Below, in pieces: positions 3,608 through 38,266 of a stretch of 64,000 bases of DNA. Under the pieces are notes generated by a model that saw nothing but the letters and a program-made list of their open reading frames with translations, made no database searches and was not told where the DNA came from. The position numbers and the translations under genes were made by a program. Position 1 is the stretch's first letter. Every line of letters starts with the position of its first letter. Source of the DNA: Candidatus Latescibacterota bacterium (GTDB lineage: Bacteria > Latescibacterota > UBA2968 > UBA8231); assembly GCA_965217585.1 (NCBI GenBank), contig OZ244561.1:2816001-2880000 (forward strand). The letters run 5' to 3'.

Positions 3608-3973
3608 CTACCCTGCGACTTGGGCACTGATGATCAAGTGCTCGACCCAATCGTCTCCAGCGTTGCAAAGCTGGTGCTTGACCTTCGGCGGAATGTGTAC
3701 CGCATCTCCCTCGCGCACCTCGTATATCTCCCCGTCGATCTTCATCCGTCCCTTGCCGCTGAGGAAGTAGTACACCTGCTCGGTGGCCTCGTGCTCGTGG
3801 TAATCGCCTTCCAGCCCCCCTTGCAGGCGATGCAGCGTCAGTCCAGAAAACCCCTCGAGTACTGCCTTGTCCGCGCTTAGACCCTCGGCGCTTTGGGCGC
3901 GGAAGATCGACCAGATCAGCTTGGATTGATGCCCGACGACGGGCGTGACGTTGCGCCAATTGCGAATGACCAA
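3608..3973 (-). CDS. Cupin domain protein
   Basis: [17 protein letters not shown]...[14 protein letters not shown] cupin motifs 1 and 2. Confidence 0.85.
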
Positions 3974-4137
3974 AATGCCCTCCTCGCGTTTTAAATCGTG
4001 TTGGGGAAATTCGTCGGCTTAACATACCAAACGGCGGGCGGCAAGCAAAGCGCACCCTGCCGCCGCCGCGCCGTTTGGTTAGATTTGTCCCCAAGTGCTT
4101 ATACAAACAAAAGACAACACCATTGGAGGAGGAGACC

Positions 4138-5049
4138 ATGCACTACGACAAATGCCAACGCACCTTTGACTGCGCGCCGACGCTCACTGATTCTCAAGTC
4201 CTCGAATTCTGCCGCGAGGGCCATCTTTTGCTCAAAGGCGTCGTGTCCGACGAGATCAACCAGCGCACCTGTGCTTGGCTCGACGGCGATATTCCAGCCA
4301 ACCCGAGCTACATCCCCGACGGCCGGACTGGGGCCGACCTCGACCGCATCCGCTTTACCCACGAGCCGAGTTCCATCTTCTTGGAGGACTGGTTCGTCGA
4401 GCACGTCCTGCTCAACCCCCAGTTAGCCGGTGCCATGCGCTCGCTTTTAGGCCCTAACATCGGCCTGCCGATCATAGCCAGCCACCACCGGGTCGAATGC
4501 CCAATGGAACCCCAGGGCTGGCACCAAGACGCCGACCACATCTATGGCCCGGAGCTTCGCTTTTTGGAGGTCTTCTACTTTCCGCAAGACACGCCCGTGG
4601 AACTGGGGCCGACCGAGTTGGTGCCTGGCTCGCACATCCAACCTGGTCGCCGCGACAGCGAAGAAGGGGGCGTGTTTTGCGACGGCCCGGCCGGCACCCT
4701 TGGGATCCACCACCAGAGCATCATGCACCGCCGCGGTAAGTCCACCGCCAAGGGTCTGCGCCGGATGCTCAAGTACAATTACTGGCGCACGGCACCCCCT
4801 CAGCGCGATTGGATCGTCGAGGAGGACTTCGATTTCCAGCGCGCGTATTACGGCGGGCACGGCACGGCGCGCTACTATGCGCACATGTTCTATTGGCTCT
4901 GTGGCAAGGGGGACCAGTTCCGCATCATCGGCGGTCAGGCTTGGCCTTGGCAGACCGCAAACCAGATCGGGCCGTCGTATGGCTTTGACGCCGAGGAAGG
5001 CTACCAGCCCAATTGGCGGCGGGACAATCCCGATGGATATGCGCGTTGA
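4138..5049 (+). CDS. PhyH-family dioxygenase
   Basis: [18 protein letters not shown]; RBS GGAGGAGG before ATG 4138. Confidence 0.8.
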
Positions 5050-5129: not shown

Positions 5130-5222
5130 ATGAGTAAAATTGGCGGCGAGATTATAGACGGGTTACGCGATGCACTGGAGTATGCAAAAGGTGAGACGAA
5201 GGACAACAAGGAGCATCGCGTC
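5130..5222 (+). pseudogene. 5' remnant of a HigA-like/XRE antitoxin gene
   Basis: [31 protein letters not shown] resembles the N-terminus of HigA-like regulators; it has no HTH and runs into the hsdR 3' end. Confidence 0.45.
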
Positions 5223-8200
5223 AGGAACTGGCAGCGATTACCTCCACCAGTTCCGCCACGACTGCCACCTCACCCTCATCGGCGCACGTGAGGACGATGG
5301 GCTCAAACTCGGGATTGGTCGGCTTCAGCGTGATCTTGGCGTGCTGCCATGAGTCACCGTTCTGGATCTTCTTGCTTTCGTATCGCTTGAGGGTGTACCG
5401 CGCCCCGGTTTCGGGGTCGATAGCGTCGTGGAGTTGAACCAATACCGTCTTACCCTGGCGTGTGCCCTCTACGGGAGCGCGGAACAAACCATGTGCTCCG
5501 TCGGGGACCGTGGGTTCCATTGAGCGGCCCACGATCTGTGCGACGAACATCCCCGGTCGCAAGCGGTGTGTAGAATCCACTTCGACCCACTCCCACTCCT
5601 CCTCGGCTGCCACGTTCTGGGGATTGCCGAACTCGCCGGCCGCGATAGCAAGCGGCACGAGCGGGACGCAGGTGACGTAACGCTCGTCGGGCTTGGCGGC
5701 GACGATGCGCAAAGCAGGAGGCTGGGCCGCGTCAAGTTGAGTGGTGGCTGAGACCTCATCCCCATCTCGAAGCCGCTGGTACGCCTGAGACGCTAGCCAC
5801 TCACTCACTAACTGTTGGAACGGTTGGTCGTTCATGTAGCGGACGAAAATCTCCTCGTTCTGGTCCATGCGCTCAACGAAGAGTCGTTCCAGAAGATTCC
5901 TGAACACCAACTCGAACTTGTCCTCCGGGTTCACTGCGGCTGCTTGGCGCAGTCCATCGTCGCTCATGGCCGCCTCGACGATCTGATCAAAAAAGAGCTG
6001 GTCGGCCTGATTGAAGTCGGTACCGAAGCGTTCGTTGACAACGTCAATGAGCTGCGAAAGCGGCACCGACTCCTCGTGTACAGCGCCGCTGCCGACCTCA
6101 GTCGGCCCATCCAAGGCGTGAGCATCATCCCCCGCGAGGGAGATCGAGCCTTCACTGATCTTCTGTAGGCGGTAGTACTCAAGCCGCACCTCGTCATCGA
6201 ATTGATATGCAGGACCGCTCCGCCGCCGTGGTAGCTTTGCCGCCAGATGGCGCAGGAATACGTACAGGCGTTCAAGGTCCGAATCCTGGTACGGGATGAC
6301 TTGGCTCAGGAAGCCGTAGAGATTGCGAAAGGCTTGGACCTTTCCGCGCCAGAGTTCTGCTTCGTCCTCGTCATCTTTCTGCAGGACGATAAAGCGCGAT
6401 ATCGCGGGATCGAGCGCGGCGTGCATCGCTTGGTGATCTTGGACGCTCTGACGCTGTTTTGGCTTGAAGTAAACTTCACAGAACCGCTCAACCTCTTCAT
6501 CGAGATAGATCCCGGACGCGTCGAGTTCTCCCTTGACCGAGTACATTCGGGCGGGATCGACCTCCGCTCCCATCTCCGCCCCTTCGTAATAGACCTTGAA
6601 TGCCTCGCGGATTTCTTCAGGGTCGTTTACAAAGTCGAGAACGAAAGTGTCCTCCTTAAGCCGGTGGGTGCGGTTCAGGCGGGAGAGCGTCTGGACCGCT
6701 TGGATGCCGGCGAGCCGCTTGTCCACGTACATCGTGTGCAGGAGCGGCTGATCGAACCCGGTCTGGTATTTCTCCGCGACCAGCAACACCTGATACTCTG
6801 GAGTTGCGAACTTCTCTGGAAGCTCCTTCTCCCGGATGCCCAGGTTCATCTTCTCCTCGGTGTAAGACTCGTTCGGAAGCTGGTCGTCTCGAACTTCTCC
6901 CGAGAAGGCTACCAGTGTTTTTATTGCGTATTGCTTCTTTTGGATGTAGCGATCAAAGCTCTGCTTGTATCGCACCGCCTCAAGCCGGGAACTGGTGACG
7001 ACCATCGCTTTGGCGCGGCCACCGATCTTGTGGCGCGTGACGGCGTGGAAGTGCTCGACCATTACCTCGGTCTTCTGCGCGATGTTGTGGGGGTGCAGGC
7101 GCAGAAAACGCGCCAGCGCCAGCGCCGCTTTCTTCCGCTCGACGTTTGGATCGTCTTGGCAGGCCTTAAGCAATTTGAAGTAGATCGCATACGTGGTGTA
7201 GTGCTTGAGCACGTCGAGAATGAACCCTTCCTCGATTGCCTGACGCATTGTGTAGCGATGGCCCGGCTCTCCATCTTGGCCGAACACGGCAAGCGTCTTG
7301 TGTTTGGGCGTAGCTGTAAAGGCGAAGAAACTCAGGTTCGCTTGCCGGCCACGCTTGGCCATGCTGCGGAACAGTTCCTCTTGATCTTCGCGGCCTTCCT
7401 CCTCCGCACGTTTCCGAGCTTCCTCCAGCAGATCTTCGCCTCCGAGAACCTCTTTGAGATCCGTCGATGCTTCCCCTCCCTGCGAGCTGTGCGCTTCGTC
7501 GATGATAACGGCGCAACGTCGGGTAGGCAGTACGCCTGTCCCCTCAACGCCCTGCTCCTCGGCCATCTTGAGTAATTGCTGCGACACAAAGGGGAACTTC
7601 TGTAGCGTGGTGATGATAATTGGGACGGCGTTCTCTAAAGCCTCGGCAAGCTGTCGGGAACGCTCGTCGATCTTCTGCACGACACCGAGCTTGTGCTCGA
7701 ACTGGTAGATCGTGTCTTGCAGTTGCTGGTCCAGCACGACGCGATCGGTCACCACGATCACGCTGTCGAAGACGCGCTCGTTTGCCTCGTTGTGCAGGGA
7801 AGCGAGTCGGTGCGCGAGCCAGCCGATCGTATTGCTTTTGCCGCTGCCCGCCGAATGCTCAATGAGGTAGTTGTTGCCGACGCCCTCGCAGCGAGCCTTC
7901 TGCACCAGTAGCCGGACGGCATCAAGCTGGTGGTAGCGCGGGAAGATCATCGTTTCGGCCTTCACCTTGCGGCCGCGGTCGTCGCGCTTCTCTTCGATCT
8001 GCAAGTGGATAAACCGGGCGAGCACATCGAGCAGGCTGTCCCGGGCGAGTACTTCCTCCCAGAGGTAGGCCGTCCGGTAGCTACGGCCCGCCGGATCGTG
8101 CGGATTCCCGGCACCGCCTTCACATCCCTTGTCGAAGGGCAGGAAGTAGGTCGCGTCGCCGGCTAGGCGCGTGGTCATACGCACGCATTCGGTATCGACG

Positions 8201-8778
8201 GCAAAATGGACAAGCGTGCGGCGTTTAAACTCGAAGATCAGCTCTCGGGGGTCGCGGTCTCGCCGATACTGGAGGATCGCATTCTCTACCGTCTGCCCGG
8301 TGAGCGGGTTTTTGAGCTCCATTGTGGCGATGGGGATGCCGTTCAGGCTCAGGGTTATGTCGAGCGATTTCTCCAATTGGGGCGAAAAACGAAGTTGGCG
8401 GGTGAGTCCGAGTCGGTTAGCTGCGTAGCGGGCTTCGAGGTCTGGGTTCAGTTCGTGGGCCGCCTTGAAAAATGCTGCGTGGAGCGTCCGCCCGTAGCAC
8501 TTGAAGCCGTGGCGCAGGGTTGCGAGCGAGCCATTGGCGTCCATCCACTTGCACAGGTCCGTGAGAATCTGCTCGCCGGTTTGTTCGCCGTGAAGGGCTT
8601 CTAGCTTGGCCCATTCCACGGGCTGGGTTTCGCGGATGAAAGCGAGGACGGTGTCGGGAAAGATAGCGCGGTCGCGATCGAAGCCGTCTCCAGCAATGGA
8701 GATGTAGCCGTTCTGAAGCAGGTGTGCTTCGATGACGGTCTCGAAGGCGGCTTCGGAATGCCTGTTGTCACTCGGCAA
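5221..8778 (-). CDS. hsdR: Type I restriction endonuclease subunit R with C-terminal S24/LexA-like domain
   Basis: [14 protein letters not shown] nuclease motif, HSAGSGKS Walker [26 protein letters not shown]; C-terminal AAG...GRSMEP...TLKRY. Confidence 0.93.
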
Positions 8779-8811: not shown

Positions 8812-9492
8812 TTACTGAGGTTTAGTGAGGGTTGCCATATGCTCTTCTAGAGCTGATCGTAGTGCAACGCAGAACACGTAGAAGAGACTATTCCCGTTAC
8901 GGTTGCAAATCGAGTTTCGTGCACGCTGCGCGTCAGCATAAGACATTGGGTTATCACCCGTCGGTCCGTAGATGAACTCCTCAATGAAGAGCTTTCGTTC
9001 CTCGGTAAGACTCCTATGATCGAGACCGAGGACCTCAATCGTGGTTATGGCTTCGGTTCGATTGTTAACTGCCTCAATCTCACCATTAAGCTTGAATCGA
9101 AAGACCTGTTCGCAAGTAGGCTGAAGCGGAGACACGAATTCGGCACCATCGTTATCCCACCAACAATCCTTAAGCCGTGCGCCATAGCGAGGCTGTCCTT
9201 TCACATCGTCTCGTGGGAAACACGCTACCAGATTGGTGTAGTCCAAATCAGATCCATGCAGGTCCTCCCGGCAGCGACTCCGTGGCTTGATATGTTCCAC
9301 ATGCGATGAATTCTTGTCGATTCGACGCATCGTATAGGCACACAACCCGCCTTGGTCTGCAATCATAGCCACCAATATTAGCTCCTTATGGGCCGAAAAC
9401 ACCTCGCGCCAATCAGACTTGTTCGTTCCCGCAACTTCAGCACACCACTCGGAATAAGAGTGCGGGCATCCGGTTTTCTGGATGTACTTCAT
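8812..9492 (-). CDS. HNH endonuclease, PtuB/TIGR02646-like
   Basis: MKYIQK start, QGGLCAYT, HVEHIKPRS, LDYTNLVAC; ATGA overlap with the upstream ATPase. Confidence 0.8.
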   Translation of the reverse strand: MKYIQKTGCPHSYSEWCAEVAGTNKSDWREVFSAHKELILVAMIADQGGLCAYTMRRIDKNSSHVEHIKPRSRCREDLHGSDLDYTNLVACFPRDDVKGQPRYGARLKDCWWDNDGAEFVSPLQPTCEQVFRFKLNGEIEAVNNRTEAITTIEVLGLDHRSLTEERKLFIEEFIYGPTGDNPMSYADAQRARNSICNRNGNSLFYVFCVALRSALEEHMATLTKPQ

Positions 9493-10742
9493 TCGGCCAA
9501 AATCTCCAGTCGAGCTATGCGCGCTTCAAGAACGGACCACTCTGGTAGGTCAAGCCCGTTCTCCTTAGCCTCTGAGATCACGGCACGTGCTTTCTCGAAG
9601 GTTCCTTCCCCAATTAAGCTCTCAACAGATTGAATGGCTGCCATAGCAGCCTCGGGTCGGTCATCGGCCTCCATGAGGTGGCGTAGGATCCAGTTTGAAT
9701 CCATCCCAAGGCTGCGGTCCGGACGGATGATTCCACTAGGATCCAAGAGGTGAACCTGATCGGGCTCGACGGACGCCACGACCTGCGGCGAGTGAGTTGT
9801 CGCGATGAACTGGCAGCGCGGAAAAGTGGTGGTCAGGTTGTGAATGATCTGGCGCTGCCATTTGGGGTGTAGATGCAGGTCAAGCTCGTCAATCAGGACG
9901 ACCGCTTCGGCTTCGGAGGCTGGGTCGGTGAAATTGGGGTTGGCCTGAGCAAATCGCCGGGTCAGGTCCAATATGAAGGCCAGTATCCCTCGTTCGCCAT
10001 CCGAGAGTTGCTGGACAGGAATTGTCGTGGAGTCCCGATCGATCAAGATCTGCGGGTTATCCTCACCTCCCAGCCGCAGATTCGCGTAGCCTGGAAGGAA
10101 GCGCCTCACGGCATCCTCGCAGGCGGCCAGCTTGTGGCCGACTGCTGGATCCTCGTTGCGCATGGATTCTTGGCGCTTCAGCCAATCACCGAAATCGACG
10201 AGCCGAAGCTCGCGCTCCAAGAAAGCATCCGCGAACGCCGTTTCTACACCTCCGGCAGCGAGACCCTTTCGCGGACCCCGCTTAGACGGGATGGCTCGGT
10301 TGGTCGAGAAAAGCACTGCAAGAGGTCGCCCGTCAGGCTCGTGGTCGGATACCGGTAGCGGCGGATCACCGATGAAATCCGCCACTTCCGGCGTATTGTG
10401 AACCTGCTCCCGAGGCATTCCCGCCTTCGCCTTCTGCGGAACACTCGTCTCACGTGGTTTGTGGAGGAGGTAACTGTGCGCTCGCTTGCCAATCCGAACA
10501 TCGCATTCGACGATCATATCTTTGGCTCCGATACGGATGTCGTCGACGGAGAACGCTTCGACCCGGCCTCGGAGCTTGTTTGCCTGTTTCACCGCCGCCG
10601 ACAGGCAAACGCACAGTGCATCTAGAACGCTCGTCTTCCCGACTCCGTTAACCCCGACGATCAGGTTGAATCCCGGCTGGAATCGAAATTCGGCGTTCTC
10701 AATTGCGCGGAGGTTGACGAGCTTCAGCGAGGTAATTTCCAT
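9489..10742 (-). CDS. ABC/AAA ATPase, PtuA-like
   Basis: GVNGVGKTS Walker A, LSDGER signature, VVLIDELDLHLHPKWQ, TTHSP. Confidence 0.85.
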   Translation of the reverse strand: MEITSLKLVNLRAIENAEFRFQPGFNLIVGVNGVGKTSVLDALCVCLSAAVKQANKLRGRVEAFSVDDIRIGAKDMIVECDVRIGKRAHSYLLHKPRETSVPQKAKAGMPREQVHNTPEVADFIGDPPLPVSDHEPDGRPLAVLFSTNRAIPSKRGPRKGLAAGGVETAFADAFLERELRLVDFGDWLKRQESMRNEDPAVGHKLAACEDAVRRFLPGYANLRLGGEDNPQILIDRDSTTIPVQQLSDGERGILAFILDLTRRFAQANPNFTDPASEAEAVVLIDELDLHLHPKWQRQIIHNLTTTFPRCQFIATTHSPQVVASVEPDQVHLLDPSGIIRPDRSLGMDSNWILRHLMEADDRPEAAMAAIQSVESLIGEGTFEKARAVISEAKENGLDLPEWSVLEARIARLEILAE

Positions 10743-12025
10743 GCCATTTGCTCCATGTCAATTTGGCCTGTAACTGCCGCTGAGATGAGTGCCGCTCGGC
10801 GCTCTTTGAGCAACACCGTGGTCCTTTCCGTAGCGTCGCGCAGCCCGTCCAACTTGCAGGTCTCATTCTCTATGTGGGCAACGATTTCGCGCTGCTCACT
10901 GAGCGGGGGTACAGGGAGTGAGACCGCGAAGAAGCCTTCTGGATAGAGGCGCAACCGGGATGACCACACACCCTTTGAGTATCTCGTTACCTCTTGAGCG
11001 AACGCCGACAAACGCACCAAGGCGTCGACATAACTCGGATCGAGGTGCGCTATAGGCTCATAGACGTTATAGGCCGGACTAACGATACCGTCTAAGGACG
11101 ACACACCCATCGCGCCCATCCATGCCCACATTGTATTGATTACGAGATCGCCCGAGAGGCAGATTTTGTATCCCTCTTTTGTCGCCGCCTCGAACATGTT
11201 GACGTCCTTTTCTGAACGAAGAGTCACGCCAGTGAGGTGCGACACAGTGAGGAGATCTTCTTCTCCCGTATCGGAACGTTCATCGCGTTCCCTGAACAAC
11301 CATCTTGCGCGTTCAGTTTCCCAATGCGCTGGAATTTCGCCAAGCCAAGGAATGCCGGAGTCACGGAGCGGGACGTTTGGGTTGATCCCACGGGAGACGG
11401 CGCGGGTGATGAGCGCTCGGCGCTTCTCGGCCAGAAACCTAAGCAGCCGCTCCTTCTCCGTCACCAGTGCATCCAGCCGCGCCGTCTCCCGGTCGAGGTA
11501 GTCGGCGATGGCGTGCTGTTTTGAAAGCGGCGGCACCGGCAACCTGACAGCCCCTATCTCAGATCTCGCTAGCCCAAAGCGAGTTACTCCATTCGCAGCA
11601 AGTTCCAGTTGCGTACATATCGGTTTTGCTTGGAGGCATCGGAGCAGGAATTCGCCTGCCAACTGGTGGCGGCGGGGACGAAGAAGCGCGAGGTGATAAC
11701 CGCATACAAGGTCGTCGGCTGTTTCCCGAACAAGCGCGGGGACACCTATATCATCCCATGATTCTGAATCCTTCGTGATGACAACATCGCCGATTTGTAA
11801 GCCGAACTTCTTGATTTCGTCCTCGGTTGCTGTTGCCTGCATGAAGTCGAGGCTCAAAAAAATAAAATCGTTGTTGTAAACGTCCGTGTAATTGCACAAT
11901 CGAACCGGTATTTCGTGGTCAACCGACAATTTATCGACGTTGCTCACCACATAATCAGTCGTTGCCCGGAGCGGCTGCACCTGCCACGACTCAGGCAGTG
12001 AGTTGACCCAGGCGAGGTGGCTCAC
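10724..12025 (-). CDS. hsdS: Type I RM specificity subunit
   Basis: Two TRDs, PPLSKQ/PPLSEQ conserved repeats, DSGIPWLGEIPAHW, ALISAAVTGQID. Confidence 0.93.
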   Translation of the reverse strand: MSHLAWVNSLPESWQVQPLRATTDYVVSNVDKLSVDHEIPVRLCNYTDVYNNDFIFLSLDFMQATATEDEIKKFGLQIGDVVITKDSESWDDIGVPALVRETADDLVCGYHLALLRPRRHQLAGEFLLRCLQAKPICTQLELAANGVTRFGLARSEIGAVRLPVPPLSKQHAIADYLDRETARLDALVTEKERLLRFLAEKRRALITRAVSRGINPNVPLRDSGIPWLGEIPAHWETERARWLFRERDERSDTGEEDLLTVSHLTGVTLRSEKDVNMFEAATKEGYKICLSGDLVINTMWAWMGAMGVSSLDGIVSPAYNVYEPIAHLDPSYVDALVRLSAFAQEVTRYSKGVWSSRLRLYPEGFFAVSLPVPPLSEQREIVAHIENETCKLDGLRDATERTTVLLKERRAALISAAVTGQIDMEQMAWKLPR

Positions 12026-14010
12026 TCGGTCACCTCTCTCAACAGTCGCATGATCTTCTCCTCCGCCTTCTTCAGATCCGCGTCAATCTGTTCCAGTGGC
12101 CGCGGCGGCGTGTACTTGTAGAAGTGGCGGTTGAAGTTGATCTCGTAGCCGACTTTGTCCTTGTCTCGGTCCATATAGGCGTCGGGGACATGAGGCGCTA
12201 CCTCGCGCTCGAAGTAGGCGTCGATGTCGTCTTTAAGCGGCACGTTCTCGAAGTCGCGCAGCGCGGTGTCAGGTTCGTAGCCTTTCTCCCGGCCATCTTT
12301 CCTGACCCGCTCGGCTTGCGGATCCTTCTCGGTGAAGACATCTCGGAAGAGCTTCTGTTCCGTCTTCTTCCAGCGCGATTGGCGCTCATGCAGGAGATCG
12401 GCGATGCTCTCCCACGTCGCATTCCAGTCGCACTTCGGCTCTCGTCCCAACGCCTTGTCTATGGCCTGCACATCGTCGAGCAAATACGGGCAGGCATCGA
12501 GAAAACGGGACTTGTCTTCTATGGTCATCTGGTAGCGCAAGCGCAGGGGTTGCTCCACGGTCACGCGTGTGTAGCCGAAGTCATCGTTGTCGAAAAGCTT
12601 GGAGCGTTCGCCATCCTCAAAGCGGCCATATAGCCGCACGATCTCCTCAATCTGCTCTGCGGCGATGTGGCGGCGCTTGTCGCCAAGGCTGCGCTTGTTG
12701 TCTTCACTCCCTCCCGCGGTCCACAAGTCGCGGGCGTCGAGAAGCTGGATTTTCCCCTGCCGCCGCTCCTCTTTGCGGTTGGTGACGATCCATACGTAGG
12801 TGCCGATGCCGGTGTTGTAGAACATCTGTTCCGGCAAGGCGATGATGGCTTCGAGCCAATCGTTTTCGATGATCCACTTGCGAATGTCGCTCTCGCCGGA
12901 GCCAGCACCGCCGGTAAAGAGCGGCGAGCCGCTGAACACGATGGCCAAGCGCGAGCCGTGCTTGTGCTCGTCTGGGCGTACTGGCTCAAACTTGTGGGTC
13001 ATATGCTGTAAGAAAAGCAGCGAGCCGTCATTCACTCGCGGGAGTCCAGCGCCGAAGCGGCCCTCGAATCCGAGCTTGTCGTGTTCTCTCTGGATATCAT
13101 TCTTCTGCCTCTTCCAGTCCACGCCGAAGGGCGGATTGGTGAGGAAATAGTCGAAGGTCTCACCCTCGAATTGATCGTCCGTAAGGCTGTCGCCGAAGCG
13201 GATGCTGTCGCCGCCGCCGTTGTGGTCAACCTGCTTCATCAACATGTCGGAGGCTGCGGTGGCAAAGGCGCGGTTGTTATAGTCCTGCCCATAGACGTAG
13301 AGCCGGGCAGCGCCGTGGTGCTCTCGCAGGTAGTTTTGCGCCTCGGCCAACATGCCGCCGGTGCCGCAAGCGGGGTCGAGGAGCTTACGCACGGTGCCGG
13401 GTGTGGCGAGCAGTTCGTCGTCGTGAATGAAGAGGATACTCACCATTAGCCGGATGACTTCGCGTGGCGTGAAGTGATCGCCCGCAGTCTCGTTCGCCAA
13501 CTCGTTGAAGCGGCGGATGAGATTCTCGAAGAGGAGTCCCATTTGCTCATTCGGAACTCTATCGGGGTGCAGGTCCACATCGCAGAACTTCGAGACGACG
13601 AGGTACAGAATGTTGGACTCGCGCATCTTCTCGATTTCGGTCTCAAAATCGAAACAGTCGAAGAAAATGCGGCGCACGTTGGCCGAAAAGCCTTGGATGT
13701 AGCTGACGAGGTGCGGGGCGATGTTGTCTGGATCGCCCTTGAGCTTCTCGAAATCGAGCGGCGAGTGGTTGTGGAAGCGCTGGCCGGCAGCCCTGTTCAG
13801 CCTAACGTCGAGTGCGTCGCCGTGGAGCCTGTCGCTCCAGCGGTCGTACTCGGACAAGACAGCGGACTTGGTCGGAGCGAGTACGCAGTCGAACCGCCGC
13901 AGCACGGTCATAGGCAGCATGACGCGCTCGTACTGCGGTGGGCGGTAGGGACCGCGCAGCAGGTCGGCGATCTGCCAGATCAGGTTGGCGAAGTAGCTGT
14001 GGTCAGGCAT
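12022..14010 (-). CDS. hsdM: Type I RM N6-adenine methyltransferase
   Basis: IWQIADLLRG, GDHFTPREVI, DPACGTGGML, NPPF, FYNTGI. Confidence 0.95.
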   Translation of the reverse strand: MPDHSYFANLIWQIADLLRGPYRPPQYERVMLPMTVLRRFDCVLAPTKSAVLSEYDRWSDRLHGDALDVRLNRAAGQRFHNHSPLDFEKLKGDPDNIAPHLVSYIQGFSANVRRIFFDCFDFETEIEKMRESNILYLVVSKFCDVDLHPDRVPNEQMGLLFENLIRRFNELANETAGDHFTPREVIRLMVSILFIHDDELLATPGTVRKLLDPACGTGGMLAEAQNYLREHHGAARLYVYGQDYNNRAFATAASDMLMKQVDHNGGGDSIRFGDSLTDDQFEGETFDYFLTNPPFGVDWKRQKNDIQREHDKLGFEGRFGAGLPRVNDGSLLFLQHMTHKFEPVRPDEHKHGSRLAIVFSGSPLFTGGAGSGESDIRKWIIENDWLEAIIALPEQMFYNTGIGTYVWIVTNRKEERRQGKIQLLDARDLWTAGGSEDNKRSLGDKRRHIAAEQIEEIVRLYGRFEDGERSKLFDNDDFGYTRVTVEQPLRLRYQMTIEDKSRFLDACPYLLDDVQAIDKALGREPKCDWNATWESIADLLHERQSRWKKTEQKLFRDVFTEKDPQAERVRKDGREKGYEPDTALRDFENVPLKDDIDAYFEREVAPHVPDAYMDRDKDKVGYEINFNRHFYKYTPPRPLEQIDADLKKAEEKIMRLLREVTE

Positions 14011-14090
14011 GAGTGCGTACGCTCAAAACAGGATTCAATCCGTATCAGGTGGGGGCAAAATTTCTTATCCGCGCTTCTGTCCATAGGCCG

Positions 14091-14477
14091 TCAAGGCTCC
14101 GAGAGGGATTCGACCTTTTCTTCAAGCCACGAGTTCAATTCGGTGAATCGGAATGAACTAGCTTCGAACATCCGCATGAAGAAGGCGTATGCCTTATCGT
14201 TGTCGCAGTTGATGAAGTGGCCGTTCATGCGCAGAAAGGTGTCGGTGACGAAAAAGGCGACCCGCTTATTGCCGTCCACGAATGCGTGATTGTTGGCTAG
14301 GCTCTCCATGAGAGCAGCCGCTTCTTGGATAAGCCCGTCGTAGTATCCAAGCTGGGGGCGCATGAGCGCAGAGGCGAGAGCACCTTCATCGCGGAGGCCC
14401 TGTGAGCCGCCAAATGCACTAATCAGGGCGTTGTGCATGGCGATGACTTCCTCGATGGTTGGGAAGTCATGGGTCAT
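14091..14477 (-). CDS. doc: Doc/Fic family toxin
   Basis: HAFVDGNKR motif, GLRDEGALASALMRP; 128 aa. Confidence 0.88.
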   Translation of the reverse strand: MTHDFPTIEEVIAMHNALISAFGGSQGLRDEGALASALMRPQLGYYDGLIQEAAALMESLANNHAFVDGNKRVAFFVTDTFLRMNGHFINCDNDKAYAFFMRMFEASSFRFTELNSWLEEKVESLSEP

Positions 14478-14704
14478 TTGGCCAACAATTCACCTAGGCG
14501 ACGATTTTTCTCGACACTGGCCTGAAAATGGGCCATAACCGAGGCCCGGCGCTTTTCCTGAGCGCGGTTTTCAACGTATTCCCGCATGGCCTCTTCCAGC
14601 ACCGCTTGGAAATGACGACCTTCCTTGCGGGCAATTTCGCGCACTGCGGCCAGCAACTCTGGCGAAGCCTGACTAGAAAATTTCTCTCGTAGCACAGCCA
14701 TCAC
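14474..14704 (-). CDS. Probable antitoxin (RHH-like) of Doc
   Basis: 76 aa, overlaps the doc start, ends RRLGELLAK as Doc partners often do. Confidence 0.7.
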   Translation of the reverse strand: MMAVLREKFSSQASPELLAAVREIARKEGRHFQAVLEEAMREYVENRAQEKRRASVMAHFQASVEKNRRLGELLAK

Positions 14705-14724
14705 TATACCCCCTTTTGTATCGT

Positions 14725-14765
14725 TATATAGAATTGTGGGAGCAATGTGTCAAGAAATATCTTGA
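14725..14765 (-). promoter_or_regulatory. Sigma70-like promoter with palindromic operator for the Doc TA operon
   Basis: Minus strand TTGACA (14753-14748), 17 nt, TATATA (14730-14725); palindrome TCAAGA-AATA-TCTTGA at 14750-14765. Confidence 0.55.
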
Positions 14766-14782
14766 TAGAAATGGGCAGAAAG

Positions 14783-15216
14783 CGTCGCAGAGCACCGCGA
14801 GAACCCGGACTGCGACGAGTGCGCGTGACCGTGCGAGGCCCGGCTGAGTTCCGCGCTGATTATGGCAGGGGCACGGCACCGGCCCGGCGGGTGTGGGGCG
14901 GTACTGATTAAATCCACATTCCCCGTCTAACTACGGGAGCCTCCGCGCTCGTCGAGCGAGCTTTGGCAGAACCCGGGTCTATTCACGGGGGGATACACCG
15001 CGCCCCTGCTGAGAATGGCGAACGGAAGAGACGCGAAGCCCTGTTGCTGATTCGCTGAGGAGCTTCCGGTGCTGAGTGGTTAGCCGCTATGTGGTTGAGC
15101 GGCTTTACCGGATAATTGGGTTATCATCCCTGAGGTCGCGCGTTACAGTGCGCGCCGCGTCTGGGCTATGCGCCGTCACCGGCGCAGTCGCACTTGCTTC
15201 CCTGTCTCTTCCGTTC
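14783..15216 (-). ncRNA. Candidate large structured ncRNA of unknown family downstream of the DIP1984-like gene
   Basis: No ORF. Perfect 13-bp helix 15204-15216/15020-15032; helix 14995-15009/14865-14879 extends via G-U only on the minus strand; 7-bp hairpin with GUGA (GNRA) loop 15169-15186; nested hairpins 15065-15112; terminal helix near 14783-14817. Confidence 0.65.
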
Positions 15217-15225
15217 TAGTTGTCT

Positions 15226-15762
15226 TTACTGTTCGTCAGCATATTCCACCTCTACCTCGAACGACGCGGCGCGGATCTGCCGATTGAGCTGGCGGAACTC
15301 GACGCGCGCCTCGTCGAGACGGGTGCGGCAGTCGTCGTAGGGCAACTCGTTGTCTTCGACGATGTCGCGTTCCTCTTTGTGGAGGACCCGCTCGTACGCG
15401 GAATCGACGACTTGGGTGTGTAGTTCTCCGAGGCGGTCGTTGAGCGCTTTGCGGGTCTCGAGGGCCTCAGTGAGGCTCATGTCGTCGCCCCCGTGTTCAA
15501 CGCGGTGCTCGAAGTTGGCACGCTGGATCGCGGCGTTCAGCTTGCGGCGTTTGAATTCGAGGGTGCGCAACTGGTCGCGTGCCTCGGAGACGCTGAATCC
15601 AGGTGCTGGCCGGCGCGAGAAGTCGTTGTCTCGACGGGGGAACAGATCTCGATTCTGGCGCGCCTCGGGCAGGCAGTCGCGCAGCGTCTTGATGCGGGCG
15701 TCGTACTCGCCGCGCAGTTCGAGGGCTTCGTAGAGTCTGATGGTATTTCTGGCTTCGGTCAT
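15226..15762 (-). CDS. DIP1984/septicolysin-like coiled-coil protein
   Basis: Internal duplication LYEALELR...LNAAIQRANF / LTEALETR...LNRQIRAASF; strong RBS AGGAGGTGA; family recognised by eye. Confidence 0.65.
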   Translation of the reverse strand: MTEARNTIRLYEALELRGEYDARIKTLRDCLPEARQNRDLFPRRDNDFSRRPAPGFSVSEARDQLRTLEFKRRKLNAAIQRANFEHRVEHGGDDMSLTEALETRKALNDRLGELHTQVVDSAYERVLHKEERDIVEDNELPYDDCRTRLDEARVEFRQLNRQIRAASFEVEVEYADEQ

Positions 15763-15986
15763 ACCTCACCTCCTTCTAGTTTCACCGGGAGATGAGTCGA
15801 AATTCGAGGGGACGTAGAACAGTCGCAACAGTTCAGCGACTTTTTTTGCGTGCGGGGGGAAAATTGCAATGCCGAAGAGCTCATTTGAGGGCAAAGAAGC
15901 TGTGATCTAGAAGAAAGGTCGCTAGTCAGCGAATTGTGGCCCGGTGCTCGTCAACCCTGACACGATTATTCCTGCAGAAGATGGTC

Positions 15987-16125
15987 TTATTGGCTTACAT
16001 GGATGAATTTGAACCATACATTGTCCAAGTGTCTGAAAATTGAATTCTGCGCGAGCCCGGATAGCCCACGGTGCTTTCCGGGTGAAACCGAGCAACAGAT
16101 TCGTGTCTAGGAGGAAACGTGTCAT
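15987..16125 (-). pseudogene. Internally deleted PIN-domain (VapC-like) gene
   Basis: N-terminus MTRFLLDTNLLLGF joined out of frame near 16040 to a PIN-like C-terminus FRHLDNVWFKFIHVSQ*. Confidence 0.55.
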
Positions 16126-16136
16126 AAAAATATCGC

Positions 16137-16824
16137 TCAATCGAGTTGGGCTAGGAGATCCTCGATGGGTTCATCGCCAGGCCATGTGCCCGCAAGCTCA
16201 ATAGGGTCAAAGCTCCCGATTTGCTTGCGTTGTACCGAGAACAGGTTATGCGATTTCTGGACCTCTATTGATGGCATTTCTTCGAAAACGACATCCTTTT
16301 CCAGCCGACCACTAATCCGGCGAGCCTCGATCAATCGCGGCTGCCCATTGGCCTTGAAATGCACCATTCCCTCAACGGTGGTCTGCTTGCCCCATAGAGG
16401 ACGCAAAGCCTCTACACTCAATGACGCGTCTAGCCGTCCAAAGAGTGCTGACTTCTGGCTCACTAGAAGGCGAAAGCGACCATTACCATGTTTGATCTCG
16501 ATGTTTGATCTCGTCAAGCCTGCCACTTACGATGAAAGACCTTGGAGTCGGGATGTCATTCAACCGCTCTTTGGCGTATGTGCAAGTAATGTCGTCCAGC
16601 GCGAATTGCCCATGCGCCGTGCCTTGAGGGATCATTTCATAGCGCACACCAGCAACTCCAGCCGCTTGCCTGAACTTGAGAATCGCTTCGAGAACCGAAC
16701 TGTCGAAATAGTCTCCAATTGGATTGTCGGTCTGGGTCTCATTGATCGATTGAGCGACCAGATCGAGCGCAGTTTCGTCTTCTTTCAGGCCGCTGATGCG
16801 GAGTTGGTAGTGTTGTGTTTTCAT
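16137..16824 (-). pseudogene. Hypothetical protein frameshifted by a 13-bp tandem duplication
   Basis: ATGTTTGATCTCG twice (16488-16500, 16501-16513). Removing one copy fuses ORFs 16483-16836 and 16137-16526 into ...SGRLDEIKHGNGRFRLL... Confidence 0.7.
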
Positions 16825-16872
16825 GGCGGGGCTCACTTTCCTAAGTTGCTGAGGTCCATTTCAAGAATAATA

Positions 16873-18633
16873 TCACTCCCGGATCGCTATGTGCAACTCC
16901 CGCAACTGCTCAGGCGACACTTCTCCCGGAGCGCCCATGAGCGGGTCCTGCGCATTCTGGTTCATCGGGAAGGCGATGACCTCCCGTATGTTCGGTTCGT
17001 CCGCCAGCAGCATGACGATACGGTCGATGCCGGGTGCGATGCCGCCGTGAGGCGGAGCGCCGTAGCGCAAGGCGCGGATCATGCCTCCGAACCTGCGATC
17101 CACTTCCCGCCGCGAGTGTCCGGCTATCTCGAACGCCTTGTACATGATGTCTGGTCTGTGATTGCGGATGGCACCGCTCGACAGTTCGAGGCCGTTGCAG
17201 ACGATGTCGTACTGATATGCCTTGATCTCCAGCGGCGGTTGGCTCTCCAGAGTAGCCATGCCACCCTGTGGCATGGAAAACGGATTGTGCGAAAAGGCCA
17301 CGCAAGCGCGTTCTGCGTCCCATTCGTACATGGGAAAATCGACGACCCAGCAGAATTCATAGCAGCCCTCCCGCCGCAAATCGAGCCGGTCTGCCAGGTG
17401 TAGGCGCAACCGTCCCGCTAGGGCCGCGGCCTCGGCTGGTGGCCCGGCTATAAAGAAAATGGCTGATCCCGGAACGGCTGCACACTTTTCGATAATGCGA
17501 CTACGCACGCTTTGTTCTAGGGCCGCGGCGATTGAGCCTGTGGCCTGTGCTCCGTTGATGAGGTACGCCAGTCCCTTGCCGCCCGCTTCTTTGACGAATG
17601 CTTCGAGGCTGTCGAAAAACGAGCGCGGCTGCGCCTCTAGCTCGGGAACGCACAGGGCGCGGACGACCCCTCCTGCTGCGACGATGTCCCTGAACAGCCT
17701 GAACGAAGATTCTGCGAAGATCGCGGAGAGATCTTGGATTTCGAGCCCGAAGCGCAGGTCTGGTTTGTCCGTGCCGAACCGCAGCATGGCGTCGGCGTGG
17801 GAGAGACGCGGGAACGGCGGCGCGGTCACTTCCCAATCGGTGAACTCGCGAAAGAGACCGGAAAAGAGTTCCTCGACCACAGCAAAGACATCCTCCTGCT
17901 CGACAAAGGCCATCTCGAAGTCGAGCTGGTAGAATTCGCCGGGGGAGCGGTCAGCGCGGGCATCTTCGTCGCGGAAGCAGGGCGCGATCTGGAAATAGCG
18001 ATCGAAGCCGGATACCATCAGCAACTGCTTGAACTGCTGCGGTGCCTGCGGCAGCGCGTAGAAGTGGCCGGGATAGAGCCGGCTTGGCACGAGGTAATCG
18101 CGCGCGCCTTCGGGTGAGCTGTTGGTGAGAATGGGCGTCTGGAACTCGGCAAAGCCCATGCCCGTCATGCGCCGTCTGATGCTGGCGATCACGTCCGAGC
18201 GGAGCTGAATGCGGCGGTGCAGCCCGGCCCGACGCAGGTCGAGGAAGCGATAGGACAATCGGGTGCTCTCGCCCACTTCGGGATCTTCGGCCACGGAAAA
18301 GGGGAGCGGCTCCGCCGACGAGAGCACTTCCAACTCGCGGACGGCGATTTCCACCTCTCCGGTTTTCATGGCGCTGTTGATGGTCGCAGGCGACCGTTCG
18401 CGTACGTCGCCTACGATGCGGATTACGGATTCGCGCGGGATTTTTGCCGCGGTTGCCGCAGCGTCATTCTCCGGCGAGATCACGAGCTGGGTGATGCCGT
18501 AGTGGTCGCGCAGATCTAGGAACAGTACGCCTCCGTGGTCCCTGCGGCGGTGGATCCAGCCGCTCAGGCGAATGGTTTGGCCGGCGTGGCGCTGGCGGAG
18601 TTCGCCACAGGTGTGCGTGCGATAGCGGTGCAT
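16873..18633 (-). CDS. aspS: Aspartate--tRNA ligase, probably non-discriminating Asp/Asn type
   Basis: [55 protein letters not shown]. Confidence 0.96.
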
Positions 18634-35872: not shown

Positions 35873-38266
35873 ATGCTGGGCAACTACCTGACGACGGCGC
35901 TGCGGCTTCTGTGGCGGGAGCGCGGCTACGCGGCGATCAACATCTTCGGCTTGGCCATCGGCTTTGCCCTGTGTCTGCTGATCGTCCAGTTCTCCGCCTA
36001 TCAACTCGTGATTGGCGACTTCCACGAGAAAAAAGACCGGGTTTACCGCGTGCTGGGACCAAATTTTTGGACACCTGGGTACACGGGAGCACTGCCAATA
36101 CCTCTGGGGCCGGCCCTTGAGGAGCAACTGCCCGAAGTCGAAGAGGCGGTCCGCTTCACTGCGAGTTGGCCGAGTCTGCTCCGGGTCGGGTCCAAGGACG
36201 GGATCTCCGAGAAAGTGCTGACCGCGGAAGCAGGCGTTTTCGACGTGTTTAGCTTGCCGCTCCTGCGCGGCGACCCCAAGACGGCCCTGACGCGCCCCTA
36301 CACCATGGTGCTGACCGAGCCGCTCGCCCGTCGGCTGTTCGGCGAGAGCGATCCCATCGGACAGGTCGTCCGCTACGAAGAAAAATTTGATTGCGAGGTC
36401 ACCGGCATAGTCGGCCAGCCACCCACCAGCTCGTTGCTCCAGTTCTCGGCACTGCTCTCTTTTGCAACAGAGTACAAGGAGACCCCGGGAATGATGGCGT
36501 CTGGTTGGAACGCTTCAGCCTTCACGACCTTCGTGCAGCTAACGCCCGGTGCCGACCCGGCTGCGGTAGCCGGGCGCATCCCCAGTATTGTCGAGGCGAA
36601 CAGGGGGGTATCAGACGCTGATAGGGCCGAGGCGATCACAGGATCGCGAGAGACTGCTTTTTCCTACGCACTGCAACCCTTGAAATCGATCTACTTCGAC
36701 ACCGAGGTGTCCAGCAACATTGGCCCGAGTGGCAATCCCCTCTACTTGACGCTGTGCGCCATCTTAGCAGCCGTGATTCTGACGATCGCCGGGGTCAACT
36801 ACGTGAACTTGGCGACGGCGCGGGCCGGGCGGCGGACTCACGAGATCGGCGTCCGCAAGACCCTCGGCGCACATCGCGGCCAGCTCATTGGCCAGCTCCT
36901 GAGCGAGTCGGTGCTGTTGAGCGCTGGGGCGACCGTGCTGGGCGTTGCCATGGCCGAGGGTGTGATTCTGCTCATACCCGTGATTACGGGATTCGATTTT
37001 GAATTGTCCTTTCTGCGCTGGACCCTCCCGGTCTGCGCCGGGGCTGTGGTGCTGGCGGTGGGGGTCGGGTTGGCCGCGGGTGCGTACCCGGCGTGGGTAG
37101 TGGCGCGCTTTCAGCCGGCGACTGCGGTGCGCGGGGGCCGCGTGGGCGGTGCGCGTCTGCGCCGAGGTTTAGTGGTGGCGCAGTTCACGGTCACCGCGGC
37201 GTTGATGAGCATGACGCTGCTGATATGGCACCAGCTCGATTACGTCCAAAACCTCCTCCGCGAGGACTCGGCCTTGGGGTTCGAGCCAGAACAGGTAGTG
37301 GTGATCAGGAATAGTGCTTTGAGCATAGATCGCGCCCGAACCTTCAAGACGGAGTTGCTTCAAGACAGCCGCATTGCTGCGGTGAGTCTCGCTGCGACAG
37401 TGCCTGGTGAAGGTTCGAGTACGAAGTACGGCGTCAAGCCAGAGGGCGTGGAAGATCAAGTAATGATGAGAACTTATGGCGTGGATGGCGACTTCGTCGA
37501 AATCATGGGCTTGCGCATGGCCGAGGGACGCGATTTTACCGACGAAGCGACCGGCGCAGTTGTCATCAACGAGACCGCGATGCGGATGTTGGAGTGGACC
37601 GAACCGCTGGGCAAGAGGATTGCCGTCGGCGGTCAGGACCTGCGCGTCGTGGGCGTGATTGCGGACTTCCACTTCGACGGTCCGCACCGGAAGGTAGAGC
37701 CCCTGATCATGGTGCCGGTCGCCCACTGGTCGAGCCTCATTATCGTGCGGGTGCAACCCGGTCATCTCGACGCGGCCCTCAAAATGATTGACGCCAAGTG
37801 GGAGGCGGTCGCACCCTACCGCCCCATCCAGCGTCAGCCTCTCGAAGAGGTCTTCGCCGGGCTTTATTTTCAAGAGTTGTTGATAGGACGCGCCCTCACG
37901 GTCTTCCTCGTTTTATCTCTCGTCGTCGCCTCAATAGGACTTTTCGGCATGGCGGCACACGCCGCTCAAGAGCGCACGAAGGAGATCGGCATCCGCAAGG
38001 TGTTCGGCGCTTCCCCCGGCGGCCTCACTGCCATGCTGCTGCGCGACTTTGCCAAGCCCGTTGCCATCGCCTTCCTCCTCAGCGTGCCCATCGCCTATTG
38101 GTTGGCTAACCAATGGCTGCAAGACTTTGCCTATCACGTGGAAGTCGGCGTGGGCCTGTTCTTGGTGTCGGGAGCCCTGTCCTTCGCCATCGCTGGACTG
38201 ACGGTGGGCCATCAGGCGATGCGAGCGGCCCTAACCAATCCGATAGACACGCTGCACACTGAATAA
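35873..38266 (+). CDS. ABC permease MacB/FtsX type (copy 2)
   Basis: NYVNLATARA..R..EIGVRK, ERTKEIGIRKVFGA, AALTNP. Confidence 0.92.
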   Translation: MLGNYLTTALRLLWRERGYAAINIFGLAIGFALCLLIVQFSAYQLVIGDFHEKKDRVYRVLGPNFWTPGYTGALPIPLGPALEEQLPEVEEAVRFTASWPSLLRVGSKDGISEKVLTAEAGVFDVFSLPLLRGDPKTALTRPYTMVLTEPLARRLFGESDPIGQVVRYEEKFDCEVTGIVGQPPTSSLLQFSALLSFATEYKETPGMMASGWNASAFTTFVQLTPGADPAAVAGRIPSIVEANRGVSDADRAEAITGSRETAFSYALQPLKSIYFDTEVSSNIGPSGNPLYLTLCAILAAVILTIAGVNYVNLATARAGRRTHEIGVRKTLGAHRGQLIGQLLSESVLLSAGATVLGVAMAEGVILLIPVITGFDFELSFLRWTLPVCAGAVVLAVGVGLAAGAYPAWVVARFQPATAVRGGRVGGARLRRGLVVAQFTVTAALMSMTLLIWHQLDYVQNLLREDSALGFEPEQVVVIRNSALSIDRARTFKTELLQDSRIAAVSLAATVPGEGSSTKYGVKPEGVEDQVMMRTYGVDGDFVEIMGLRMAEGRDFTDEATGAVVINETAMRMLEWTEPLGKRIAVGGQDLRVVGVIADFHFDGPHRKVEPLIMVPVAHWSSLIIVRVQPGHLDAALKMIDAKWEAVAPYRPIQRQPLEEVFAGLYFQELLIGRALTVFLVLSLVVASIGLFGMAAHAAQERTKEIGIRKVFGASPGGLTAMLLRDFAKPVAIAFLLSVPIAYWLANQWLQDFAYHVEVGVGLFLVSGALSFAIAGLTVGHQAMRAALTNPIDTLHTE

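Follow-up and report, generated by a model that had tools for sequence, protein, structure and literature searches.

Within a 64,000-nucleotide (nt) stretch of contig OZ244561.1 (assembly GCA_965217585.1, Candidatus Latescibacterota bacterium; positions 2,816,001-2,880,000), hereafter the window, we identified a conserved structured RNA of ~197 nt (15020-15216, minus strand) directly downstream of a gene coding for a protein of 178 amino acids (aa) (15226-15762 including the TAA stop codon, minus strand), which is a divergent, internally duplicated relative of the DUF6847/DIP1984 family. This RNA is real, is new to Rfam and is obligately tied to a subfamily of DUF6847-related proteins, a conclusion that we regard as close to certain. 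The 3′ third of the RNA is a periodic array of short motifs, for which we propose a role as a docking surface for the encoded protein. An earlier note on this DNA had claimed a structured RNA directly 3′ of the gene and on the same strand; this holds far beyond the genome in which it was seen, since the RNA is coupled to the gene across phyla in 78 of 80 loci. The same note had extended the RNA to a multi-domain element of ~435 nt, which we revise, as only the first of its three domains (domain 1) belongs to the conserved RNA.

Linkage of the RNA to its gene, and its fold

We searched 60 related genomes and recovered the full-length gene in 11 of them at 94-97% identity (ten from the same genus and one from a sister genus) and also in six genomes of a different family at ~60% identity. 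Alignment of the 17 downstream regions (11 + 6) revealed that the downstream DNA accompanies the gene and that domain 1 is common to all of them. In the other family the first ~50 nt of the RNA are 90-92% identical, exceeding the ~60% identity of the protein. A covariance model was built from these 17 sequences and applied to a cross-phylum collection obtained by profile searches with one genome per species, which yielded 107 confirmed gene loci, of which 80 were kept. These loci span about a dozen phyla, including Latescibacterota, Desulfobacterota, Spirochaetota, Verrucomicrobiota/Lentisphaerota/Kiritimatiellota, Acidobacteriota, Nitrospinota, SAR324 and Planctomycetota. The RNA was detected in 78 of the 80 (67 of 69 loci and all 11 from the genus of the window), with the matches scoring 59-238 bits and always lying on the gene's strand directly after its stop codon. 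The two loci without a covariance-model match are L119, where the gene is truncated and there is no RNA, and L087, where the RNA is reduced to its last ~90 nt, comprising the array and the 3′ core, beside an intact gene; L103 has a truncated gene with a partial RNA. We found no locus with an intact gene that lacks the array. The earlier note had proposed comparing the regions downstream of homologs, and this comparison uncovered a conserved RNA, with compensatory changes described below.

A search in the opposite direction, using a 21-base degenerate pattern of the 5′ core of the RNA, retrieved at least 118 metagenome stretches, of which 80 were made into loci; the covariance model confirmed the RNA in all 80. 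Linkage was counted in the 65 contigs with at least 560 nt upstream of the RNA core. A near-full-length gene is present in 56 of these, with the last aligned residue 8-23 nt before the core (46 nt in one case), and four retain only the C-terminal end of the gene (the last 44-54 codons). The remaining five have no tblastn match in place; on translation, three of them showed a rearranged gene or short remnants of its C-terminal end, and two showed nothing. The gene-first and RNA-first counts together establish that the linkage holds both ways. Where the module decays, RNA-only copies outnumber gene-only copies. The chromosome of Candidatus Uabimicrobium (Planctomycetota; L113:3517-4473) carries three copies of the RNA for one gene, each followed by a U-tract; ahead of the second and third copies stand remnants of the final codons of the gene. 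Archaea are represented only by two short contigs, binned as Thermoplasmata (L092) and Bathyarchaeota (L070), and both are doubtful; the former has a score identical to that of a Desulfobacterota contig, which it joins in the tree.

The distribution of the module is patchy, with 11 of 30 genomes of the genus and 26 of 151 genomes of the phylum carrying it, the latter with one match each. The 466-nt stretch covering the predicted RNA and the gene are each present once in the 7.3-Mb genome. We accordingly rejected a dispersed repeat or miniature inverted-repeat transposable element (MITE), since both the home genome and its relatives hold a single copy; recurrence of that kind was what the earlier note had named as telling against an RNA. 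That note had also judged the RNA to be unlike tRNA, tmRNA, RNase P, SRP or 6S RNA. A search of the region 14000-16500 against Rfam 15 at E <= 10 returned nothing relevant (two chance-level matches of 15-17 nt), and neither the whole window at gathering score nor the RNAs of five diverse family members had a match, in agreement with that judgement.

The RNA begins ten bases after the TAA stop codon with P1, an outer helix of 13 base pairs (bp) in which the 5′ strand (15204-15216) pairs with 15020-15032, the latter being where the conserved RNA ends on its 3′ side. The molecule is closed jointly by P1 and, inside it, the helix P1a. Enclosed by them on the minus strand are P2, a hairpin with a GUGA loop of the GNRA type (15169-15186); P3, in which an invariant UAGCCC pairs with GGG.U and which encloses the hairpin P3a, followed by the hairpin P4 (both within 15111-15168); and the array of A-(G/A)-C triplets (15038-15104). 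A GAAGC/GCUUC helix joins 15200-15196 with 15039-15035. The alignments show hardly any variation in the 5′ core or the 3′ core. Within 18 nt after P1, a U-tract (TTTT) is present in 29 of 59 representatives; the window's own copy is without one. The energy of folding is distinctive, with z = -5.73 for domain 1 by itself and none of 200 shuffled sequences folding as well. The whole region 14770-15225 reaches z = -2.98 when folded as the minus strand, a value equalled by 2 of 100 shuffles, and -0.93 when folded as the plus strand. The frequent G-U pairs fit only the gene's strand and identify it as that of the RNA, so that the assignment to the minus strand made earlier is upheld. All the helices described at that time were likewise recovered on reading the sequence, namely the 13-bp helix, GAAGC/GCUUC, the GUGA hairpin and the closing helices of domains 2 and 3. 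A 'double stem' (CCGGU.. / AGCCGCU..) assigned to domain 1 does form in the window's lineage but is not conserved in others.

The claim of a fold is borne out by compensatory base changes in two alignments. In the first, a model-fitted alignment of 70 covariance-model matches, 90.8% of cells are paired, versus 77.9% in shuffled alignments and 35-50% when the partners are slid. In the second, an independent MAFFT alignment of 44 diverse sequences with the structure drawn by hand, the corresponding values are 89.5%, 79.1% and 35-44%, with double changes at 26 of 37 pairs. Compensatory changes occur in five helices, with P1, P1a, P2, P4 and the core of P3a being well supported. P1 is paired in 97.7% of cells across the 44 sequences and displays double changes at five of seven pairs; its outer 6 bp are wholly exchanged between two bacterial families with the pairing kept. 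In the other family GAAGC/GCUUC becomes GGAGC/GCUCC, and two pairs are changed in the GNRA hairpin. P2 has compensatory changes at all seven pairs (94% of cells paired), P4 at all four pairs and P3a at the three pairs of its core, while P3 is 90.5% paired, its variation being confined to G-C and G-U. A long-range GYGC/GCRC helix (72-85% paired, one covarying position) is tentative. Four further helices suggested by RNAalifold in the 3′ half (helices 6-9, model R1) had 66-86% of cells paired with many pairs broken and were dropped.

The two domains that had been placed 3′ of domain 1 do not belong to the conserved RNA. Domain 2 (14864-15010, minus strand) is a genus-specific 3′ extension, closed by a 12-bp helix (15009-14998 with 14876-14865). 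On its own it folds with z = -2.74 (2 of 200 shuffles as good), and its closing helix shows one C-G to G-C exchange as judged by eye. It is present in 9 of the 11 loci of the genus and sister genus and missing from two; the six genomes of the other family have unrelated sequence in its place, and all other lineages are without it. In two genomes of the same genus BLAST finds domain 2 without the gene (G026, query positions 194-362 only; G019, 47-362). Domain 3 (14783-14817, minus strand) is a local hairpin before the RHH-Doc operon that is not conserved in the alignment of the 17 downstream regions and was not flagged by a terminator scan.

Sequence words of the stretch are shared by 14 RNA-library runs from sponge and other metagenomes, and contigs from four of these runs, sponge metatranscriptomes belonging to two studies, were aligned to it. 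They cover 15031-15219 (189 nt), 15023-15204, 15062-15384 and 15022-15444, the last being from a relative ~94% identical. Two of the contigs run from the coding sequence into the RNA, and contigs of both studies end at the foot of P1 (15022, 15023 and 15031). In one run the contig 15031-15219 is separate from a coding-sequence contig, 15225-15510, a break explained by strain differences at 15220-15221. The contig depths (29.5 vs 3.5 and 3.1; 12.7 vs 3; 195.6 vs 2.2-3.8) cannot rank the parts of the gene. Domain 2 is covered in one run only, a metatranscriptome in which its contig has a depth of 3.8 beside one of 195.6. No contig in the four runs covers 14720-14827 or 15746-16050, a hole that proves nothing. 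Together, these contigs give a weak hint that the transcript ends at P1 and that domain 2 lies outside the main RNA.

The motif array and the encoded protein

The array lies between P4 and the 3′ strand of P1a and has a modal length of 63 nt. Column information in the alignments peaks at nine A-(G/A)-C triplets, one every eight columns. In the window their first bases lie at 15104, 15096, 15088, 15081, 15073, 15064, 15056, 15048 and 15040, the last being a GGC that enters P1a. AGC is by far the commonest triplet, and of 350 intervals between adjacent AGCs, 137 are 8 nt, 33 are 9 nt and 115 are 15-17 nt. The spacers vary freely among lineages. Neither alignment has a covarying helix within the array, and Tandem Repeats Finder reported no tandem-repeat array in 14700-15900.

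The motif is not the same throughout the family. Among 138 loci, 132 are of the AGC type, and six have instead, on the same scaffold, UUAC repeated with a period of 7 (sometimes 8) nt. In all five of the UUAC loci that retain the gene, the protein is only ~35% identical to that of the window. A quick maximum-likelihood tree, computed from 106 distinct proteins, places the three full-length ones of the UUAC type together on a single long branch (support 100). This subfamily is represented by the metagenome contigs L156, L157, L162, L173, L177 and L193, in which the RNA measures ~224 nt.

The description of the gene as DIP1984-like stands with respect to Pfam, where the protein matches PF20935 (DUF6847) with 45.1 bits against a gathering cut-off of 27, but not with respect to NCBIfam, where its score with NF038048 (DIP1984 family) is 41.4, under the cut-off of 70. 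The Pfam match falls in two stretches, the better of which aligns residues 93-171 with model positions 63-140. Each half of the protein aligns only to positions ~58-140, i.e., the C-terminal half of DUF6847 rather than the full domain of ~141 positions, and the halves match each other with 25% identity (E = 0.013). The correspondence of both to the same C-terminal half indicates an internal duplication. Arg or Lys occupies 15 of the 47 invariant columns of the family alignment. A confident AlphaFold2 model (predicted local distance difference test 87.2; predicted template modelling score 0.71) displays four helices, each 21-28 residues long and flanked by short strands, and residues 39-57 form a disordered loop. 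Searching the PDB by sequence gave chance-level matches only (E = 0.37 and 0.41).

The subfamily is small, with 206 cluster representatives at E <= 0.001 among 1.84 billion, and highly conserved, being ~60% identical across phyla. Canonical full-length DUF6847 proteins (model positions 1-141; 176 and 174 bits) also occur in the same phylum, and the genes of these two and of one partial member have no such RNA beside them. The module protein is accordingly akin to the DUF6847/DIP1984 family, often annotated as 'septicolysin', in exceeding its Pfam cut-off, but differs in duplicating the C-terminal half, in falling below the NCBIfam cut-off and in its RNA, which the canonical members examined do not possess. 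Publication listings and abstracts on DIP1984, DUF6847, PF20935/NF038048 and septicolysin offer no function and at most mention these names as annotations.

Upstream of the gene, alignment of 11 same-genus regions revealed that the conserved cassette starts ~85 nt before the ATG, beyond which the contexts diverge. This flank (15763-15847, minus strand) contains the ribosome-binding site and a GTCGC-N9-GCGAC palindrome, which marks the 5′ boundary of the cassette within the genus. The palindrome may be an operator or promoter element, and the flank as a whole may act as the promoter. A promoter and terminator scan of 14400-16200 detected nothing promoter-like, and neither the RNA nor domain 3 was called as a terminator.

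Genomic surroundings of the cassette

In the window the module is bordered on one side by aspS (16873-18633) and on the other by a toxin-antitoxin pair comprising an RHH antitoxin-like open reading frame (ORF) (14474-14704, minus strand) and a Doc/Fic toxin (14091-14477, minus strand). Further along is a type I restriction-modification system with HsdR (5221-8778), HsdS (10724-12025) and HsdM (12022-14010), all on the minus strand. These surroundings form a restriction-modification and toxin-antitoxin island, consistent with the location in a defence island proposed earlier. Between hsdR and hsdS are a gene for an AAA_15/AAA_21 ATPase (9489-10742) and an ORF of 226 aa with no known family (8812-9492). 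By eye, a TTGACA-N17-TATATA promoter-like site is discernible near the RHH-Doc pair at ~14724-14752, which the scan did not report. The interval between the module and aspS (15922-16836, minus strand) has three small ORFs of 72, 129 and 117 aa, none of which matches a Pfam or NCBIfam family; the first resembles, by eye only, a truncated N-terminus of the PIN type, and part of this interval is common to some genomes of the genus. A distal segment of the plus strand (35873-62375) holds at least eight ORFs of ~775-800 aa, of which 35873-38266 is a duplicated permease of the MacB/FtsX type, the rest being grouped with it by size only.

Across the family, the cassette behaves as a self-contained two-part unit with a patchy distribution. 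No gene cluster is common to more than 10 of the 80 loci, and those that share one are close relatives; within the genus alone there are at least four upstream contexts. The 111 nearest flanking ORFs from 59 loci fall into 64 Pfam families, the commonest of which (AAA_14, HTH_31 and HTH_3) account for four ORFs each. Parts of toxin-antitoxin systems of the PIN, TacA, UPF0175 and MqsA types occur among them, and this Pfam survey found no transposase or integrase common to the neighbours of the loci.

Certain lineages have additional genes next to the module. In one Desulfobacterota-type clade an ORF of 139-154 aa lies directly upstream of the gene (L084:2580-2996, L075:2057-2518 and ~11 more), with its stop codon inside the gene's ribosome-binding region; it has no family match and could be a third component in this clade. 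In contigs of the Planctomycetota-Verrucomicrobiota-Chlamydiota (PVC) group an ORF of ~380 aa begins 9-35 nt past the RNA on the same strand (L107:3773-4912, L112:2285-3421, L114:1066-2202 and L115:3743-4879), and L118 and L120 have one of 339 aa 5 nt past the RNA (~3752-4770). Neither of these downstream ORFs has a Pfam, NCBIfam or PADLOC match. L109 has a different ORF of 367 aa, with a weak match to nucleotidyltransferases.

Possible mechanism and alternative explanations

We propose, with a probability of roughly one in two, that the Arg/Lys-rich repeat protein docks in several copies along the array. This reading draws on the periodicity of the array, the switch of its motif with the protein clade, its retention in the partly deleted RNA of L087 and the absence of any other conserved partner. 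Under this proposal, the gene and the ~197-nt RNA would be transcribed together, with the RNA constituting the 3′ end of the transcript; P1/P1a and the nearly invariant scaffold of P2, P3/P3a and P4 would hold out a stretch of ~65 nt without conserved pairing; several copies of the protein would dock on the array, possibly with one triplet for each half of the protein; and the docked copies would form a defined ribonucleoprotein. We infer the binding of protein to RNA, its stoichiometry and its biological role. A broader and more tentative extension, to which we assign clearly less than even odds, is that the module represents an undescribed class of ribonucleoprotein, in which a folded scaffold RNA derived from the 3′ end of the mRNA for the protein bears a phased barcode (A-R-C per 8 nt or UUAC per ~7 nt) that sets the number and register of helical-repeat protein units, the RNA-templated oligomer acting as a novel sort of RNA-held toxin or phage sensor in a ~0.8-kb cassette that moves between phyla. 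As to function, the likeliest role is one resembling type III toxin-antitoxin systems or otherwise in defence, with the RNA holding or controlling the protein, which we regard as plausible at clearly less than even odds; it is suggested by the mobile, patchy and single-copy nature of the cassette, its toxin-antitoxin and restriction surroundings, the RNA-only remnants and the extra RNA copies.

Several observations weigh against these proposals. The predicted unpaired probability of the array (0.51-0.58) is only moderately higher than that of the scaffold (0.40), the triplets are no more exposed than the spacers in the predicted ensembles, and in the window's lineage part of the array can pair locally. 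The link between motif and protein clade amounts to a single evolutionary split, so that it is suggestive and allows no statistical test. Assembled RNA-library contigs cannot prove transcription, ends or abundance. The conserved third gene in some lineages means that the two parts may not be the whole system everywhere. Concerning defence, the protein has no known toxin-like domain, PADLOC has no model for it or for the lineage-specific neighbour genes, and housekeeping genes are also found among the flanks. The RNA core has no match in viral contigs; tblastn searches with the protein in plasmid and phage collections were likewise blank, which is weak evidence because these collections are poor in uncultured lineages.

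A comparison with known RNA-protein systems places the module apart from each of them, and broader literature searches turned up nothing related. In type III toxin-antitoxin systems (ToxIN, CptIN, TenpIN) an RNA antitoxin of tandem direct repeats of ~35-45 nt, encoded upstream of the toxin, binds and neutralises an endoribonuclease of the ToxN/AbiQ-like family. The module resembles them in being a two-part cassette of protein and RNA with repeated RNA units and no other conserved gene, in its patchy, mobile distribution within surroundings rich in toxin-antitoxin and defence genes, and in that the RNA copies may outnumber or outlive the gene. However, its RNA follows the gene instead of preceding it, its repeat units, of 7-8 nt and with only 3-4 bases in common, are set in a large folded scaffold, and its protein lacks a ToxN/AbiQ-type match (DUF6847 being the only Pfam hit and PADLOC giving nothing); in view of these differences in the defining features we do not file it as type III. 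Phased triplets read by several identical protein units are also known from the TRAP/trp and HutP/hut leaders, where (G/U)AG triplets with 2-4-nt spacers form part of a 5′ attenuator leader. In the module, by contrast, A-R-C triplets are separated by 5-nt spacers, the array belongs to a helix-closed 3′ RNA, and the protein is predicted to be mainly helical and belongs to an unrelated family, with DUF6847 as its sole Pfam match. CsrB and RsmZ are protein-sponge RNAs with many copies of a short motif in hairpin loops. The module RNA is comparable in carrying many short motifs on one small RNA, which could titrate a protein, but its motifs are strictly phased and lie outside hairpin loops, no CsrA-family protein is involved, and the RNA is encoded on the protein's own transcript. 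Finally, Rsr (Ro60)/Y RNA, OLE RNA with the Oap proteins and IscB/omega RNA are structured RNAs encoded beside a protein partner. They offer a parallel in the adjacency of a conserved RNA to its presumed partner's gene, yet have no sequence or family relation to the module (the Rfam searches being blank), which in addition has the phased array.

The RNA could be purely a cis-acting element of the 3′ untranslated region, serving as a terminator, protecting the 3′ end or regulating the stability of its own mRNA, with neither a particle nor a trans role. This would fit its unvarying location on the gene's transcript, always just a few bases past the stop codon, the U-tract after P1 in 29 of 59 representatives and the RNA-library contigs that end at the foot of P1. 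However, a terminator needs neither ~200 nt nor a near-invariant scaffold and phased array, and an element serving only its mRNA sits poorly with an RNA core that is more conserved than the protein, with RNA copies that survive without an intact gene, with three RNA copies per gene in one genome and with an array motif that changes with the protein clade; we consider it unlikely. Slightly less probable still, in our estimate, is that the array titrates something other than the encoded protein, as a sponge or decoy; candidates would be an RNA-binding protein of the host, a ribonuclease with sequence specificity or the anticodon loops of tRNAs, and the encoded protein would serve as a chaperone or effector. 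Short phased motifs are typical of sponge RNAs such as CsrB/RsmZ, toxin genes of the MazF/PemK type and others are common neighbours, the motif differs between clades, and in the tRNA variant AGC and UAC would be read as codons for Ser and Tyr. But no second gene is conserved across the loci, whereas the protein gene is nearly always present, and the switch of motif with the protein clade is more simply understood as cognate recognition; the tRNA idea found no support in any analysis.

The near-invariance of the 5′ and 3′ core might alternatively point to a catalytic RNA, perhaps a self-cleaving one, that releases itself from the mRNA, leaving the array incidental, and in one run an RNA-sized contig (15031-15219) is indeed apart from the coding contig (15225-15510). 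With no match to an Rfam ribozyme family at E <= 10, bridging contigs in other runs and strain differences at 15220-15221 that account for the break, this is a long shot. The occurrence of the cassette in differing genomic contexts could even suggest an element acting as DNA, such as a recombination site, a transposon end or a MITE. This can for practical purposes be set aside, given the single copy per genome, the fixed orientation and distance to the gene, the presence in RNA libraries, the lack of a transposase or integrase common to the neighbours, and the strand specificity of the fold, whose many G-U pairs would become A-C mismatches if the opposite strand were read.

Even on the most conservative reading, the element represents a new family of structured RNA, one for which a curated covariance model is warranted. 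If the docking of protein on the array is correct, it would constitute a new class of RNA that has an obligate protein partner and is widespread among many phyla, mostly uncultured ones, including Latescibacterota, Desulfobacterota, Spirochaetota, the PVC group and Acidobacteriota. As both the sequence and the period of the array change with the protein clade, the expectation is that protein and RNA recognise each other by a readable code and that the RNA templates an assembly of fixed size. The module may also be a new type of toxin-antitoxin or defence system made of RNA and protein, and it would provide the first functional handle on the uncharacterised DUF6847/DIP1984 ('septicolysin') family.

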